Below are positions 55,676-64,000 of a DNA stretch of 64,000 nucleotides, piece after piece. This DNA is from Gammaproteobacteria bacterium. GTDB taxonomy: Bacteria; Pseudomonadota; Gammaproteobacteria; JABABF01. The stretch covers positions 1,869,098-1,933,097 of the forward strand of contig OZ242171.1 of assembly GCA_965205525.1 (NCBI GenBank), given 5' to 3'. A model generated the notes under the pieces. The model was given only the letters and a program-made list of their open reading frames with translations. It did no database searches and was not told the origin of the DNA. A program made the translations under genes and the position numbers. Position 1 is the stretch's first letter. Every line of letters begins with the position of its first letter.

Positions 55676-57091
<1,416 letters not shown>

Positions 57092-57121
57092 GCGCATGCC
57101 CGCAGAGTACCGAGCCCGGAC

Positions 57122-57550
57122 ATGAGCCAAGCCAGAGTGCGCTGTGAAATCGTCAGCGCAGAACAGCAGATTTTCTCCGGCGAGGTGGAGATGCTGCTGG
57201 TCACCGGCGCGCTGGGAGACCTCGGTATCGCACCCGGACATGCACCGCTCCTGACCGAGCTGAAACCCGGCCCGATAGAAATCCGCCAGGGCGAGGGCAA
57301 CACCCAGGTGTTTTATGTCTCCGGGGGCTACTTGGAAGTGCAGCCCAACTGCATCACCGTGCTAGCCGATACCGCGCTTCGGGCTGCGGACATAGATGAG
57401 GCGGCGGCAGAGGAGGCGCGCCAGGCGGCGGAGCGGGAGCTGGGCGACCGCAAGGGCGATATGGATTACACAAAAGCTGCCGCGCAACTGGCGGAGGCGG
57501 CGGCGCAGCTGCGGACTCTGCGACAGCTGAGGAATAAGCGCAGCGGATGA
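57122..57550 (+). CDS. atpC: F0F1 ATP synthase subunit epsilon
   Basis: Beta-sandwich N-terminus plus helical C-terminus typical of epsilon; follows atpD. Confidence 0.9.
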
Positions 57551-58590
57551 CCGCACAGCCTGAGTTCCGGGGCAGCGCCTTGGATTATTTCGGGATCTGG
57601 AGCACCAACCTATTTCTAGTAATTCTGACCTTGGGCTTGTACTCCCCCTGGGCCACCGTTCGCAAGCGCAAGTATCTGTACGGCAGCACCTGCCTGCTGA
57701 ACTCGCCGCTGGACTACCATGCCCGGCCGCTGGCAATATTGAATGGCCGCTTGGTGGCTATCCTGCTGCTAGTGCTGATCAGCTTGCTTTCCTTTTTCCC
57801 GATAGCGGAAATATTGTTTTTACCCCTATTCGTTCTAGCAACGCCTTTCTTGGTAGCGCTTGCCTACAGGTTCAGTCTTCGCAATACTTCTTGGCGACAG
57901 GTGCGATTTGATTTCCGGGGCAGCGGCAAAAGTGCTTTCGCTCCCTATTTTTTCTGGCCTTCCCTAGCCATTATGACGCTCGGGCTGCTGCTCCCCTATA
58001 TGCGCTTTCGCCAGCTGCAATACACCACCGACAACATGGAATTCTGCGGGCAGCGCTTTCGTTTCAGCGGCAGGGCCGCCACTCTCTACAAGTTTTATAT
58101 ATTGGCTCTTATCGCTTTTTTTCTGGTTATCTCTGCGTATTTTTTCTTCTTTGCAAACTTTAGAGGTTTCGGCTTTGGCCCGCAGTCACTCCCTACGATT
58201 GCGCAGTCTATTTTAGGATACTGGGGAGATATCCTTGCATTTTTTGCAATAGTTTTCGTCATTCCCACTGCCGTCTATGTGGCCGAACTGCGATACCGAT
58301 ATAACCACACCAGTTTTGGTCCGGACATCGCCCGCTTCAGCAGCGACATCAGCACCGGCGGAATGCTGTGGCTCTCTATGACCAACCTGCTGGCAATTAT
58401 TCTCACCTTGGGTCTGGCCATCCCGTGGGCCGCTATCCGGGTGCTCCGCTATCGTCTCGCCCACATTCAAGTGCACTGCGAGTCCGAAGAGCGCATTGAC
58501 GCGATGATAGGCGAAGCCAAAGGGGAGGCCAGCGCCATTGGCGAGGAGATAGTGGAGGGCTTGGATGTCGGCACGGGCATAGGGATATGA
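57547..58590 (+). CDS. DUF898 (YjgN-like) family inner-membrane protein
   Basis: F.G...[22 protein letters not shown] pattern repeated twice (internal duplication typical of DUF898). ATGA overlap with the atpC stop. Confidence 0.7.
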
Positions 58591-59675
58591 GCAAGACAGA
58601 GGGCCTTCTTTTTGATGGCCGCTCTGCGAAGGGACAGCCTGTTTCACTGGAATGGGACGGCAGCTGCCTGCACATTAATGGAGAACATGGCAGCAGCGTT
58701 TGCAGCCGTGAGTCCCTGCGCGTCAGTGCCGATATCGGCGGCATTTCCCGCTGGATCTACCTGCCCAGCGGCCTGAGCTGCGAGGTGCGGAATTCGGCCT
58801 TCGCCGATGCCCTCTCTCCGCCGCCCCTGCGCCACCGCATCTTGCGAACATTTGAATCCCGCATCGGTCTCAGTATGGTCGCCGCCGTTTTGGTGCTGGC
58901 TGCGGTGGCTTGGGTGATGGCCCGGGGAGTGCCACTGCTGGCAGAGGCTGTAGCTGAGCGCTTGCCGGAGGAGACCCGTGCCGCTGCCGGCGAAGTTGCC
59001 TTGCTGGCAATGAATCAGCTGACCCGCCCCACCAGCCTCGGCACTGCAGAGCAGGCCCGGCTTGCCGCGCTGTTCAGTCGGGTAAAGGAGATGGCCGACC
59101 GGCCCGATGCCACCCTGTACATGCGAGACGGCTGGAGTATCGGCGCAAATGCGATTGCCATACCAGGCGAGCGCCTGGTCATCACCGACCAGCTGGTGCA
59201 GCTTGCAGAAAACGAGGACGAGCTGCTCGGCGTGATGGCGCATGAATTCGGTCATTTTGAATATCAGCACAGCATAAGAATGCTTTTTCTTTCAACCGGC
59301 ATCACGATAATGATGGCGGTTCTGCTCGGCGATATCAGCGCACTCTTTGACCAGGCAGGAGGCTTGCCCGTCCTGCTGGTATACAACGGCTACTCCCGCG
59401 AATTTGAGCAGGAGGCAGACGCCTATGCAATCGCACTCATGCAGGAGGACGGCATAGAACCATGGCATCTGTCCGCACTCCTCAGCCGACTGACCTCTGC
59501 AGCAGAACCCGGCCTGGACTATTTCTCCAGCCACCCGGCCACCGACAAAAGAATAAGAGCAATAGGATGTCCGCCGCTTTCACCAGCGGCAGACTTGCCA
59601 GAAACCGACCTCCTCCGCACCGCATGCATGCCGCAGGACAAGGCTGAAGACCCTGCCGTATTAATACGAAACTAA
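58587..59675 (+). CDS. M48-family zinc metallopeptidase with N-terminal domain and one TM segment
   Basis: HEFGHFEYQH (HExxH) with a downstream EQEADAYA third ligand region. ATGA overlap with the DUF898 stop. Confidence 0.75.
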   Translation: MSKTEGLLFDGRSAKGQPVSLEWDGSCLHINGEHGSSVCSRESLRVSADIGGISRWIYLPSGLSCEVRNSAFADALSPPPLRHRILRTFESRIGLSMVAAVLVLAAVAWVMARGVPLLAEAVAERLPEETRAAAGEVALLAMNQLTRPTSLGTAEQARLAALFSRVKEMADRPDATLYMRDGWSIGANAIAIPGERLVITDQLVQLAENEDELLGVMAHEFGHFEYQHSIRMLFLSTGITIMMAVLLGDISALFDQAGGLPVLLVYNGYSREFEQEADAYAIALMQEDGIEPWHLSALLSRLTSAAEPGLDYFSSHPATDKRIRAIGCPPLSPAADLPETDLLRTACMPQDKAEDPAVLIRN

Positions 59676-59697
59676 CATATTCTGTTTTAGCCTAGTA

Positions 59698-59725
59698 GAC
59701 GAATTCGCCACCCGTCAAAATCGCC
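59698..59725 (+). repeat. 28-bp direct repeat copy 1 (gacGAATTCGCCACCCGTCAAAATCGCC), 120 bp upstream of the GIY-YIG gene
   Basis: Identical 25-mer recurs at 60823-60847. Confidence 0.7.
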
Positions 59726-59844
59726 CCAGACACGGGTCTCCCCCTCCGTGGAGCAGGTCGCTAAGAACTTATTATAATGAAAATCCATGTCATAATCGAT
59801 TATGGTAATTAGTCAGAGTTGCCTTAATTTAATAGGAAAAAATC

Positions 59845-60675
59845 ATGAGTTCAATCCCAATTACAGATATCCTTGATATTGACAAACCAAGTGCATACAA
59901 ACTTCATGCCGCTCGGTATAATCGAGTCGATGAACCACTTTCTGTGTATGTTAGAGACAAGGATGAGTGGGTTGGCTGGAATAAGTGGAGAGGGGAAAGG
60001 CATGATTTCAATCGGCGATATATATTTTCATTGATTGATTTTTATCATGAAGCAAACACGTGGTTATTTGGTGGAATATTCAAAGTGATGGAAGAAAAGA
60101 AAGGTGAAAATTATAAGATAAAAAAGCTTAGTCAATATTCTAATTATGTTGGTAGATTGAAAGTTAAATGGACTCCCCCCAGTAGAAACCGGGCCTTTAA
60201 ATTGGAGAAGTATTTGGAAGAAATGATAGTCTCTGAGATTCTGAAACTGCGATATTCAGGAGAAAGTTTTCCCGGGTACGAAAACATAAATCATCGCTTC
60301 AGCACCCTAGAACCTATATTCAAAAATGAAGTCGCTGGGTGGAAAGCCGCATTAGAGAACGTTAAAGGGGTTTATGTGGTTATGGATGACTCCAATGGAA
60401 AAAAATATGTTGGATCTGCATATGGAGAAGATGGCGTTTGGTCTCGCTGGGGTTGTTACATCGGAACAGGCGGGCATGCGTGGAATGATGAGCTTGAAAA
60501 ACTAATTAAGAAGAAAGGGCCCGACTACGCACATAATCATTTCACGCTATCATTGCTTGAGCATTACCCAATGAAGGTAGATGACAGCGTGATTATAGGC
60601 AAGGAGGGCAGGGAGAATTACTGGAAAAAAGTATTTCTCTCAAGCTCAAAAAAGTTTGGCTACAACAAAAACTAG
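59845..60675 (+). CDS. GIY-YIG nuclease-domain protein (N-terminal domain unknown), low-GC
   Basis: C-terminal GVYVVMDDSNGKKYVGSAYGEDGVWSRW...H matches the GIY-YIG catalytic motif. Gene GC is far below the genome average. Confidence 0.6.
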   Translation: MSSIPITDILDIDKPSAYKLHAARYNRVDEPLSVYVRDKDEWVGWNKWRGERHDFNRRYIFSLIDFYHEANTWLFGGIFKVMEEKKGENYKIKKLSQYSNYVGRLKVKWTPPSRNRAFKLEKYLEEMIVSEILKLRYSGESFPGYENINHRFSTLEPIFKNEVAGWKAALENVKGVYVVMDDSNGKKYVGSAYGEDGVWSRWGCYIGTGGHAWNDELEKLIKKKGPDYAHNHFTLSLLEHYPMKVDDSVIIGKEGRENYWKKVFLSSSKKFGYNKN

Positions 60676-60819
60676 AGATTTAGGGAATATCTGATTAATA
60701 CGCGAAAACTTTGTGGTCAATGCGAAACTCTCTTTTATTATTCAGATATGCGGCATTGGTGCCGATGAAACTGCGGCACTTTTCACCACTTCAGCAACAA
60801 ACACATGCTATGCTGTAAA

Positions 60820-60847
60820 GATGAATTCGCCACCCGTCAAAATCGCC
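60820..60847 (+). repeat. 28-bp direct repeat copy 2 (gatGAATTCGCCACCCGTCAAAATCGCC), 37 bp upstream of the methyltransferase gene
   Basis: Identical 25-mer to 59701-59725. Confidence 0.7.
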
Positions 60848-60883
60848 GTGGCAAGCTGGGTTGCAGCAACCTAATCGGAGAAC

Positions 60884-61648
60884 ATGCCAATGCCTAGACC
60901 AGTTGCCAAACGGATTGAACCGATCAATGCGTCATCCGATACGCTGACCGCCAGCGTGTTCTCAAGTGTTCGGACTGTCCAACTGCCGGCGATAGAAATA
61001 CCCGCCGGCTTGAAGCTGAACAAGCGTATGAAAATGGACGGCTTGAAATTCCTTTCCAAACTGCCGGACAGCGCCATACCGGTCGCGTTCTTTGACCCGC
61101 AATATCGGGGGATACTCGACAAAATGTCGTATGGTAACGAGGGTATCGGACGCAGCCAGCGCCGCTGCGCTTTGCAGCAAATGACCGAGCCGACTATCGC
61201 CGAGTTTATTCGTGAGATTGATCGGGCACTGATACCAAGCGGGCATCTATTCCTATGGATGGATAAATTCCATCTTTGCAACGGCTTCCGTGGATGGCTG
61301 GACGCAACCGACCTTGATATTGTCGATCTGGTGAATTGGGATAAAGGCAAAATCGGCATGGGATATAGAAGCCGCCGGACTACCGAATACTGCGTCGTGC
61401 TGCAAAAGAAACCCCGCAAGGCCAAAGGCGTATGGAAAGTACACAATATCCCGGACACCTGGCGAGAGAAAACAAACAACGGAAACGGGCACCCGCATAA
61501 AAAACCGTTGGACTTGCAAGGCGAGCTAATCGCCGCCGTGAGCAATGAAGGTGATATTGTGATCGACCCGGCGGCCGGTGGTTTTACAGTGCTAGAAGCG
61601 GCAAAGCTGCAGCGTCGTAACTTTCTAGGCTGCGACCTAAACGGGTAA
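60884..61648 (+). CDS. beta-class N6-adenine/N4-cytosine DNA methyltransferase
   Basis: Motif IV FFDPQY (DPPY variant) precedes motif I IVIDPAAGGFTVLEAAKLQRRNFLGCDL; conserved HPHKKPLDLQGELI. Confidence 0.75.
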   Translation: MPMPRPVAKRIEPINASSDTLTASVFSSVRTVQLPAIEIPAGLKLNKRMKMDGLKFLSKLPDSAIPVAFFDPQYRGILDKMSYGNEGIGRSQRRCALQQMTEPTIAEFIREIDRALIPSGHLFLWMDKFHLCNGFRGWLDATDLDIVDLVNWDKGKIGMGYRSRRTTEYCVVLQKKPRKAKGVWKVHNIPDTWREKTNNGNGHPHKKPLDLQGELIAAVSNEGDIVIDPAAGGFTVLEAAKLQRRNFLGCDLNG

Positions 61649-61719
61649 TAGTGCAGGAACGGAAGCAAGAGCAGCCGGCAAATGTCCAGTTTTTCCTGTT
61701 CCTTTCTTCCCGCACTAGT

Positions 61720-62832
61720 TTAATCAACAACTAAACTATAAGAAGGCAGCAAGTCGCGTAACACGTATGTGCGGTGAATTGCCGCAGCACGATAAAACTG
61801 CCAAACTGGAGATTTTATGGCTTTAAAATAGTTTTCTTGGTTGTTAAACGCTTCCCATTCTTCATTCCAAGATTCGCCATCGTAGTCAGGTATCTGCTCA
61901 CCACTTTCAGTGCCAAATATCTTTCCCGATTCAGCAGCATCTTTCCAGACTTGGATTCGTCCTTCCTTGTTGGCCTGTGTTGCTAAAATGTTTATTACAC
62001 TGTCTCTGATGCTAGAGAATGGACGTCCATCTCCAGAATTATACTGCCCATTGGCTTGGGAAAATTTCCCAAATACTCTGTGTAAAGCTTGGCATCCCTC
62101 AAGAAAAGTTTCAGGATTATTTCTCTCACTCAACCGATTTTCTGCTTCAGCATCATCTTCATCATATTTGAAACTCCATTTCAAAAAGGGGCGGTCCGGG
62201 AAGGTTGCGGCAGCACCATGCCCCAAAGCGCCAGAGGCTATTTCGGCAACTATGCCTCCCAACGTGCTTTTTATATTTTTTATAGAGAAAGCATTTTCCT
62301 TTTTTTTGAAAAACTCTTTTTCTTTAGCACGAACATAGTCCTTAATTTTTTGGTCAAGGCCTTCATCAATATAAATTGAGGAATGCTTAATCTTGTTTCC
62401 ACGGGAGCTAATACCAGAAAAACCGTAGTGCGAAAAGGTATCAGCGTAAACATGTGCGCCAATCCCTATCAACTCACGAGCGAATCCGCGGCCTGCAAAA
62501 CCAAGATGGTGCTCGATCATCTCTCTTGCTGGTTTGCTGTCTTTTCGGCATTTCATCCTATCTCTATAGCTTTCACCAATATTGCCTGGAATAAAATGGA
62601 AAGGCACCCATACCCTACGCTGATCGTGTGGATCCAGATTCGCTAGCGTCATAGGGTGATGAGCAGTAGCTTCACTATCTATTCTTGATCCGTCTTCAAA
62701 TTCAAGAGCTTCCTTTGCCACATTGTCGTCTACAAATTGAGCACAGGTCGCAATAATTATTGCGGCATCCTGACTAAGGCCAGCGGCTCTCGCCATCGAG
62801 TAAGTGCCATGGTAATGCATGTCTAATTGCAT
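61720..62832 (-). CDS. hypothetical His-rich protein (possible metal-dependent hydrolase/nuclease-like), low-GC
   Basis: 370 aa. MQLDMHYHGTYSMARAAG...HHPMTL...HHLGFAGRG...GAHVYADTFSHYGF form clusters of His/Asp suggestive of metal binding. No confident family assignment. Confidence 0.45.
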   Translation of the reverse strand: MQLDMHYHGTYSMARAAGLSQDAAIIIATCAQFVDDNVAKEALEFEDGSRIDSEATAHHPMTLANLDPHDQRRVWVPFHFIPGNIGESYRDRMKCRKDSKPAREMIEHHLGFAGRGFARELIGIGAHVYADTFSHYGFSGISSRGNKIKHSSIYIDEGLDQKIKDYVRAKEKEFFKKKENAFSIKNIKSTLGGIVAEIASGALGHGAAATFPDRPFLKWSFKYDEDDAEAENRLSERNNPETFLEGCQALHRVFGKFSQANGQYNSGDGRPFSSIRDSVINILATQANKEGRIQVWKDAAESGKIFGTESGEQIPDYDGESWNEEWEAFNNQENYFKAIKSPVWQFYRAAAIHRTYVLRDLLPSYSLVVD

Positions 62833-63124
62833 GACATTGCTCCTTTTTGTAAAATTCCAGTTTGCCTTATAAAACTAAGGCCACCATCAAATATATACCA
62901 TGCTCTATTCTTCATGTTCAGTCAACCCCACTAAATTATACGCCGCGCTGAATGCTGGCGCAGGCCGATGGAGATCGCTGGATAAGTGAGTTATAGGTTT
63001 CACGGCAAATAAACTGTATGAAATACGGATACCCGCCCGATATTGTGTATATCCTCTCCACCGATGCATCATCCAACTTCACCTTTTCGGTTAAAATCAC
63101 TCGGCTTTGTCACGCAGATCGGAT

Positions 63125-64000
63125 ATGCAAACAGAAGACGAATGGAGAAAAGCGCTTGACGTGCTGCGCGGGACTTTCGGGTTTTCGGAGTTCCGCCCCC
63201 ACCAGGGAGAGGTCATACGGACGCTGCTGGCCGGCAGGGATGCGATTGCGGTGATGCCCACCGGCGGCGGCAAGTCGCTTTGCTATCAGATTCCGTCGAT
63301 CGTGCGCCGGGGGACCGGGGTGGTGGTTTCGCCGCTGATTGCACTGATGAAAGACCAGGTCGATGCCCTGCGCCAATACGGGGTTCGTGCGGCGTTTTTG
63401 AATTCCAGCCTGTCGTATGGCGAGCGCCTCGATACCGAGCAGACTTTCCTGCGCGGCGGTTTTGATTTGATCTATATGGCGCCGGAGGGCCTGCTCAGCG
63501 AGCCGATGCTGCAGCTGCTGGAAAAGGTCGATATTGCGCTGTTTGCAGTTGACGAGGCGCACTGCGTATCGCGCTGGGGGCACGATTTTCGGCGGGAGTA
63601 TCTGGGGCTTTCGGTGCTGGCGGAGCTGTTTCCCGAGGTGCCGCGGGTGGCGCTCACCGCCACCGCCGACGAGATGACGCAGCGCGAGATCACCGAGCAG
63701 CTGCGGCTGCGCAGCGCGGACAGGCATATCGCCGGCTACGACCGCCCCAACATCCGCTACATGATCAGCGAATCGGCCAACGCCCGGCAGTCGCTGCTCA
63801 ATTTCATCACCGAAAACCATGCCGGCGACAGCGGCATTGTCTATTGCATGTCGCGCAACGGCGTCGAGAAAACCGCCGAGTGGCTGGCCGCAAAAGGATT
63901 TTCGGCAGTTGCCTATCACGCCGGCATGACGCCCTCGGAGCGCGAGCATAATCACAACCGCTTCTTGAACGAGGCCGGCATCATCGTCGTGGCGACGATC
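63125..64000 (+). CDS. recQ: ATP-dependent DNA helicase RecQ (N-terminal 292 aa; continues beyond window)
   Basis: MQTEDEWRKALDVLRGTFGFSEFRPHQGEVIRTLLAGRDAIAVMPTGGGKSLCYQIP...DEAHCVSRWGHDFR...LTATAD. Not in the ORF track because it runs off the edge. Confidence 0.9.
   Translation, partial: MQTEDEWRKALDVLRGTFGFSEFRPHQGEVIRTLLAGRDAIAVMPTGGGKSLCYQIPSIVRRGTGVVVSPLIALMKDQVDALRQYGVRAAFLNSSLSYGERLDTEQTFLRGGFDLIYMAPEGLLSEPMLQLLEKVDIALFAVDEAHCVSRWGHDFRREYLGLSVLAELFPEVPRVALTATADEMTQREITEQLRLRSADRHIAGYDRPNIRYMISESANARQSLLNFITENHAGDSGIVYCMSRNGVEKTAEWLAAKGFSAVAYHAGMTPSEREHNHNRFLNEAGIIVVATI

Follow-up and report, generated by a model that had tools for sequence, protein, structure and literature searches.

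Uzume is a validated single-gene anti-phage system (Millman et al. 2022) whose mechanism is given as unknown in reviews, with homology of its protein, UzuA, to GIY-YIG nucleases noted in one preprint. In Table S2 of the Millman et al. preprint, phage resistance is marked 'v' for the UzuA of Bacillus sp. FJAT-27231 and 'x' for a homologue from B. cereus B4080. Another GIY-YIG defence enzyme, CMoRE/PD-T4-3 (PDB 9U75), is a type IV restriction enzyme specific for 5-hydroxymethylcytosine (5hmC) and its glucosylated form, glc-5hmC (PMC12923530), and the PUA-HNH enzymes (EVE-HNH VcaM4I and the TspA15I group) are rarely found beside methylases (PMC6765204). Here we examine a 64,000-nucleotide (nt) stretch of a Gammaproteobacteria bacterium (contig OZ242171.1, positions 1,869,098 to 1,933,097), hereafter the window, in which a GIY-YIG nuclease gene, a DNA methyltransferase gene and a third gene for a His-rich protein lie between an M48 peptidase gene and recQ. 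A first-pass annotation had suggested that the nuclease and methylase form a restriction-modification (R-M) pair, or that the three genes form an undescribed defence or toxin system. We consider it likely that they are not one system at all, and that a recently acquired copy of the known defence gene uzuA, encoding a stand-alone endonuclease, a leftover methylase from a transposon-borne R-M unit and an unrelated DUF6765 gene have come to lie side by side. The locus is a mosaic, in which a known single-gene defence adjoins the remains of an R-M unit once borne by an IS1595-type transposon and a DUF6765 gene that stands alone.

Judged by its sequence, the first gene encodes a full-length member of the UzuA/Uzume family and not an undescribed protein. 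The PADLOC UzuA model PDLC03973 matched it with E 5e-45, residues 6-276 aligning to positions 5-278 of the 278 in the model, and matched the verified UzuA (the Bacillus sp. FJAT-27231 sequence, listed in the same Table S2 as a 'GIY-YIG nuclease') over residues 3-280 (model 3-278; E 1e-76). The verified protein was 31% identical to that of the window over residues 103-276 and aligned to a profile of the window family with an hhalign probability of 99.3%. In Pfam nothing rose above threshold for this gene, the score for PF01541 falling short of the gathering cut-off. The window protein resembles Uzume in its full-length match to the PADLOC hidden Markov model (HMM), its length within a family of ~275-280 residues, its two-part build with a C-terminal GIY-YIG domain, its conserved FPGYEN linker and its occurrence as a solo gene; it is unlike the verified protein in that the N-terminal ~100 residues align through the family profile only, and in that its host has a GC-rich, proteobacterium-like genome. 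For this subfamily, activity is predicted. The family is large: its close homologues exceed 1,000, at E <= 1e-3 there are 2,562 cluster representatives, and its members are uniformly ~274 residues long. Identity to the window protein ranged from 47 to 65% in 80 genome loci drawn from many bacterial phyla and archaea and reached 72% among the closest database homologues, a spread that implies frequent horizontal transfer.

The catalytic domain of I-TevI was the best match, in both sequence and structure, for UzuA residues ~175-274 (33% identity), with an E of 3.5e-6 when the family profile was aligned to it. In this alignment G175-V-Y177 corresponds to the GIY motif (Y6 of I-TevI), Y188-V-G190 to YVG (Y17), E257 to E75 and N274 to N90. 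R201 aligned three positions past R27 and is probably the equivalent of the catalytic arginine (R27/R30 of I-TevI). These positions were invariant or at least 98% conserved among 108 diverse members. The first-pass annotation had named loss of the catalytic residues as a result that would speak against its interpretation; the Tyr/Tyr/Arg/Glu/Asn set is intact.

This likeness to I-TevI also lends itself to a different reading, in which the gene would be a selfish, free-standing homing endonuclease of the I-TevI/Seg kind that copied itself into this site and has no part in defence. I-TevI is the nearest solved relative, the SegE_GIY-YIG model was weakly matched by 39 of the 108 members, uzuA shows a clean presence/absence polymorphism between near-identical genomes (described below), and the 50-70% identity of the family over many phyla and archaea points to frequent transfer. 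The architecture, however, is opposite to that of the Tev and Seg enzymes: the nuclease domain of UzuA is C-terminal, and the protein has no Tev-type linker and no recognisable zinc-finger or helix-turn-helix DNA-binding module. Nor is the gene intron- or phage-associated; no more than 3 of 50,697 phage records had a homologue, a scarcity that argues against a homing endonuclease of this type. The insertion sites in the 80 loci shared no conserved target, and one member of the family gives phage resistance (Millman et al.). We therefore regard a homing origin as improbable.

In none of the 80 genome loci did the window methylase or DUF6765 stand beside UzuA. The three flanking genes on each side gave 407 open reading frames (ORFs) that fell into 373 clusters, the largest with three members, and the 146 genes directly adjoining UzuA represented 128 Pfam families, with a DNA methylase of any family at only two of the 146 positions. 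The closest relatives (65-70% identity) occupied yet other contexts, and conversely UzuA adjoined the methylase in none of 83 methylase loci. UzuA is a single-gene system without an obligatory partner.

A close relative of the window genome, represented by a contig (L164) reached by way of a protein that clusters with the M48 peptidase at 90% identity, carries the same locus in the order atpC-DUF898-M48-methylase-DUF6765-recQ, with no uzuA. By blastn, window positions 56190-59694 were 98.9% identical to L164 and positions 60767-64000 were 96.2% identical, and the uzuA-bearing segment between them (Table 1) found no match in L164 save for a 29-nt repeat. At the right junction L164 holds six extra in-frame transposase codons (residues 272-302 of the transposase by tblastn, against 278-302 in the window), from which it follows that the uzuA-free arrangement is ancestral and that the window lineage gained the gene. 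The first-pass annotation had noted that its reading would suffer if the three genes proved to be conserved core genes of this locus in relatives; the methylase and the DUF6765 gene are indeed conserved at this locus in L164, and uzuA is absent. The locus thus offers a clean natural before/after pair for the acquisition of uzuA.

The uzuA gene is bracketed by a direct repeat (59697-59725 and 60819-60847) of 29 nt with 28 of 29 positions identical, where none would be expected by chance; it is a piece of transposase sequence encoding DEFATRQNR. The second copy is resident, lying within a transposase relic that is also found in L164, and the first stands at the left boundary of the insertion. 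The ~50 nt following the first copy may be a frameshifted continuation (..VEQVAKNLL and two stops) of a sibling transposase that does not have the 48-nt deletion of the resident one. Deletion of uzuA from L164 by recombination between the two copies is ruled out, as L164 keeps 52 nt upstream of the second copy together with the extra transposase codons. Carriage of uzuA as cargo of IS1595-type transposons was likewise rejected as a general rule, there being no transposase near UzuA in the 80 loci or in the closest relatives.

The second gene matched PF01555 (N6_N4_Mtase; 58.3 bits against a cut-off of 26.7, E 1.4e-15) and the PADLOC MTase_II model PDLC03271 (E 2.4e-82). Its motif IV, DPQY (residues 69-72), precedes motif I, DPAAGxF (226-232), which is the order of the beta class, to which the first-pass annotation had assigned it, and both motifs are invariant in the clade. 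The ORF was listed as 60884..61648 (254 residues); homologues begin at the second ATG, at 60890, which gives 252. Across 28 sequences of the clade, including copies paired with a restriction endonuclease (REase), the invariant DPQY stands in place of the canonical (D/N/S)PP(Y/F), and DPAAGxF in place of the usual FxGxG-type motif I. Dam and CcrM are related to this enzyme by shared fold only, the NCBIfam matches lying far under the cut-off. Homologues number in the thousands, and the three genomes and 80 metagenome loci with relatives had them at unrelated positions.

Of the 70 loci whose flanking sequence was long enough, 33, among them most of the closest relatives, have an ORF of ~226 residues that begins within a few bases 3' of the methylase. 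It matched the PADLOC REase_II model PDLC03487 (E 3e-44 to 3e-47) and bears a PD...(E)xK-like motif, ..EPDF...VELK... In the window, the 51 nt past the methylase stop encode IVQERKQEQPANVQFFL, which matched REase residues 188-204 (tblastn E 0.002) and was the top match when an HMM of 20 REase sequences was run against all six frames of the 64-kb window (E 0.042, conditional 3.9e-5). This relic has the position and strand where a remnant would be expected, directly after the methylase stop. L164 carries it with a single substitution, so the REase was lost before the two lineages parted and before uzuA arrived. The methylase ORF itself is intact in the window and in L164, with a ratio of nonsynonymous to synonymous substitution rates (dN/dS) of 0.30 (7 synonymous and 7 nonsynonymous differences), and probably encodes an active orphan that still methylates the chromosome. 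In this it is like other orphan DNA methyltransferases derived from R-M systems, in which an intact, constrained methylase, here of the beta class, outlives a deleted R gene. The first-pass annotation had set against its own reading a methylase that groups with orphan or phage methylases never paired with nucleases, and a variant of that result was obtained: this clade does pair, with a nuclease other than the GIY-YIG protein. At 37 of the 70 loci that extend far enough downstream no REase homologue was found; members often stand alone or beside some other partner, and orphaning seems common in the clade. In one locus (L082:6396-10733) an intact methylase-REase pair lies in a defence-island-like setting, with ThsB_TIR upstream and a second N6_N4 methylase, fused to an HNH nuclease, immediately downstream.

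Intact versions of the unit from which this methylase appears to come were found in loci L084-L088. There, a transposase of 311-329 residues (DDE_Tnp_IS1595, E 3.7e-41, with Zn_ribbon_IS1595) ends ~10 nt 5' of the methylase, and the homology among the copies spans exactly from a left inverted repeat (IRL; GGGGACTTGTATACGATTTTAGCCA) to a right one (IRR) just 3' of the REase stop, the two being complementary at 22 of 25 positions. In L087 the ~2.5-kb unit is bounded by an 8-bp duplication, AATGAAGG. The shared limits of homology, the inverted repeats and the duplication together indicate that transposase, methylase and REase form one mobile element. At L087:3810-6957 the unit, with its AATGAAGG target duplication, sits inside a paralogue from that methylase family; it seems to have inserted into a relative of a gene that it carries itself. 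The window retains ~25-35 transposase codons: positions 60775-60849 correspond to residues 278-302 of the L087 transposase (tblastn), and 60767-60880 match the region 5' of the methylase in L084 and L088 (blastn). It thus keeps, in order, the 3' end of the transposase, the methylase and the 3' end of the REase, as in IS1595-family transposons with passenger genes and mobile type II R-M systems, but the unit is dead, with no intact transposase, no detectable terminal repeats and no REase. The locus documents an IS1595-type transposon with a complete type II R-M cargo and its decay into an orphan methylase. The transposase relic, the REase relic and the 29-nt repeat are all features beyond those of the first-pass annotation.

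These observations bear directly on the proposal that the GIY-YIG protein and the adjoining methylase make up a compact R-M pair of type II, as Eco29kI and Cfr42I do, with the methylase shielding host DNA. That a nuclease gene and a methylase gene adjoin inside a low-GC island is no evidence of partnership. The two genes were never neighbours in the 80 UzuA loci, the methylase clade has another enzyme, the REase whose relic is present here, as its partner, L164 has the methylase without the nuclease gene, and the two genes differ in time of arrival and in GC content (0.36-0.42 for the nuclease gene against 0.52). We consider the R-M pair very improbable, and this part of the first-pass annotation does not hold.

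The third protein, which is His-rich as first described, matched DUF6765 over its full length (Pfam, E 6e-88), with no match in PADLOC or NCBIfam. An AlphaFold2 (AF2) model (pLDDT 82.6, pTM 0.86; low confidence at residues 141-143 and 179-208) suggests a metallohydrolase fold like that of zinc phospholipase C and S1-P1 nuclease, and with it a possible phosphodiester substrate. The protein differs from members of that superfamily in its ~10% identity to them, the lack of an evident N-terminal signal peptide, and its larger size (an additional helical C-terminal half, plus a hypervariable insert). We regard it as an independent accessory protein, a putative cytoplasmic metallo-phosphodiesterase. 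Its gene was 91% identical to that of L164 at the nucleotide level, far more diverged than the flanks, with a dN/dS of 0.70. The divergence peaks at residues ~147-200 (61967-62466), where there are indels and 10-24 differences per 100 nt, against 0-6 elsewhere in the alignment; this hypervariable stretch coincides in part with the residues modelled at low confidence by AF2. In two other genomes DUF6765 has unrelated neighbours, lying near a HicB antitoxin in one and beside BREX and AAA_15 genes in the other (L166). Linkage between DUF6765 and the methylase was rejected, the two genes being far apart in the genomes examined.

The clustering of the three genes in a low-GC island, and the DUF6765 homologue that adjoins BREX genes in L166, could be taken as signs of one new multi-gene defence or toxin system formed by the nuclease, the methylase and DUF6765. 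Against this, no two of the three genes co-occurred in any other locus examined, their acquisition histories are unlike, DUF6765 is convergent to the other two, and each gene comes from a large family whose members occur alone. We give a three-gene system the least credence of the explanations considered here. What survives of the first-pass suggestion of an undescribed system is that the locus holds at least one defence gene, uzuA; the GIY-YIG protein belongs to a known family and DUF6765 travels alone. For annotation, recognising this averts a false call of a 'GIY-YIG R-M system' or a 'novel three-gene defence module'.

The accessory interval between the M48 peptidase gene and recQ, which starts at 63125, covers 59676-63124 (~3.45 kb), and its features are collected in Table 1. 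Here the first-pass annotation was largely borne out: the three ORFs are present and intact, they lie in a GC trough between the flanking genes it described, the third is convergent to the others, and the stretch is supported as accessory and horizontally acquired. GC content was 0.36-0.42 for uzuA, 0.51-0.54 for the methylase and 0.40-0.48 for DUF6765, or 0.36-0.53 over the trough against 0.60-0.66 outside it, with 0.59-0.66 on the atp/M48 side and 0.62-0.64 in recQ. That the three genes differ in this value is a first hint of separate origins. Upstream, the interval is preceded by a DUF898 gene and the M48 peptidase gene, whose product also contains DUF7092.

Table 1. Features of the accessory interval between the M48 peptidase gene and recQ (window coordinates)
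Feature	Position	Strand	Remarks
uzuA-carrying, strain-specific segment, 1,072 bp	59695..60766		~20 nt in its place in L164 (blastn)
Direct repeat, copy 1	59697..59725	+	Encodes (V)DEFATRQNR, a fragment of the 3' end of an IS1595-type transposase, by comparison with the intact L084-L088 transposases
uzuA homologue, 276 aa	59845..60675	+	Beta-rich N-domain ~1-135, linker, C-terminal I-TevI-type GIY-YIG domain ~166-276
Resident 3' relic of IS1595-type transposase, ..GTFHHFSNKHMLCCKDEFATRQNRR / GKLGCSNLIGEH	60767..60880	+	Ends just 5' of methylase start
Beta-class N6A/N4C DNA methyltransferase, 252 aa, without cognate REase	60890..61648	+	PF01555, PADLOC MTase_II
17-codon REase relic, IVQERKQEQPANVQFFL	61648..61698	+	Residues 188-204 of ~226, C-terminal part of cognate type II REase
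DUF6765 protein, 370 aa	61720..62832	-	Hypervariable insert at aa ~147-200
Possible relic of ATP-binding protein gene (..ISGGYPYFIQFICRE..)	62905..63100	-	Short, interrupted

Taken together, the M48-recQ interval may be seen as a small site where DNA from horizontal transfer has piled up, holding three functionally independent genes and debris. In the sequence of events that we propose, an IS1595-family transposon with the structure IRL-transposase-methylase-REase-IRR would have landed here and then decayed, leaving the methylase intact. DUF6765 would be an unrelated solo gene that lies convergent to the methylase. Most recently, and in this lineage only, the 1,072-bp AT-rich uzuA segment would have entered at the left margin of the transposase relic, carrying with it a small fragment of the 3' end of a sibling transposase and so giving rise to the 29-nt direct repeat. 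Gene relics and one close relative suffice to reconstruct three separate acquisition events.

Several points weigh against this account. The verified Uzume protein is only 31% identical to that of the window, pairwise alignments being restricted to the C-terminal ~130-175 residues, and the activities of UzuA, the methylase and DUF6765 are all alike predicted, that of the methylase being read from conservation alone, with a dN/dS that rests on 14 substitutions. No IS1595 transposase that might have brought in the uzuA segment accompanied UzuA in 85 other loci. Terminal repeats of the transposon in the window were not above chance, their scores lying at or below the mean for shuffled sequence. 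Finally, the REase relic is only 17 codons long (E 0.002-0.04), so that its weight is largely positional.

As to how UzuA might act, we suggest that it would be a stand-alone DNA endonuclease in need of no partner. Its variable N-terminal domain would recognise invading DNA by some feature, the likeliest candidate being a modified base of the kind read by type IV restriction enzymes. The I-TevI-type GIY-YIG domain would cut the DNA so recognised; we infer nuclease activity on phage DNA, whereas dependence on DNA modification is speculative and has less than an even chance of being right. Conservation was much lower in the N-terminal domain (top-residue frequency 0.39) than in the nuclease domain (0.54), but the N-terminal domain has conserved aromatic positions, with W45 95% and W73 99% aromatic along with Y35, W42, F55, F75, F79 and Y90, and conserved basic positions at K19, R104 and R114. 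Comparisons of this domain listed several YTH domains (values of 3.4-4.7), ASCH proteins and the YTH-like N-domain of archaeal McrB (4.1), and those of UzuA also listed the modification-dependent enzymes VcaM4I, AbaSI and PvuRts1I. By sequence, no credible match was obtained either in Pfam, searched with the isolated domain and with the 108 members, or with a sequence profile against the PDB. Precedents for such a mechanism are the GIY-YIG type IV enzyme CMoRE/PD-T4-3 and the PUA-HNH enzymes. CMoRE/PD-T4-3 is built differently, with an N-terminal nuclease and a C-terminal SRA-like sensor, the reverse of the order in UzuA; the two share no similarity beyond the GIY-YIG core, which reads G-V-Y-V-V in UzuA and GIYxY in CMoRE.

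The specific proposal that UzuA/Uzume proteins are type IV modification-dependent endonucleases, in which a fast-evolving PUA-like (EVE/YTH/ASCH-type) N-domain reads a modified base and GIY-YIG cuts, is in our judgement rather unlikely, if worth stating. Were it true, it would supply a mechanism for a validated defence system, and the orphan methylase would be a potential liability that the specificity of UzuA must tolerate, not a partner. Alternatively, UzuA may be a defence nuclease that does not depend on modification, either an abortive-infection effector that a phage protein or signal switches on and that degrades DNA indiscriminately, or a structure-specific nuclease acting on the replication intermediates of phages. 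Foldseek and Pfam gave no support for a reader fold, a domain far less conserved than the nuclease is what one would expect of a sensor of variable phage proteins, and reviews leave the mechanism of Uzume unknown. We regard a modification-independent nuclease as quite possible, somewhat short of an even chance.

Among the minor features of the locus, the interrupted short frames on the minus strand at 62905-63100 (..ISGGYPYFIQFICRETYNSLIQ..) resemble a relic of an ATP-binding protein gene and have the same sequence in L164. Their tblastn matches to genes annotated 'ATP-binding protein' were weak (E 0.1-0.5), and with no Pfam match a confident assignment failed. An Rfam scan of 59400-63300 gave no match, the island DNA had no match among plasmids, and a scan for promoters and terminators was uninformative, finding fewer sites than in shuffled sequence.

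In the flanks, the M48 peptidase gene (58587-59675) differed from its L164 counterpart by nine nonsynonymous and two synonymous changes, a dN/dS of ~1.5 that is based on very few sites; the DUF898 gene gave 0.18 and recQ 0.13. The DUF898 membrane protein gene (57600-58400) coincides with a second, milder GC dip (0.49-0.53) and a strongly negative AT skew. The gene is conserved in the relative, and the dip probably reflects the composition of a membrane protein rather than foreign origin. Beyond the point that corresponds to the right end of the window, L164 continues directly after recQ with a run of defence-like genes (L164:7823-13486). The first of these combines DUF6884 with GIY_YIG_3 and matched, as a fusion, the PADLOC candidates PDC-M57A (E 3e-39) and PDC-M57B (E 4e-74), and it is followed by genes for an M78 peptidase, a ThsB-type TIR protein, Nmad2, MazG_C and a UDG-family protein. 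To either side of recQ, the surroundings have the look of a defence hot spot.

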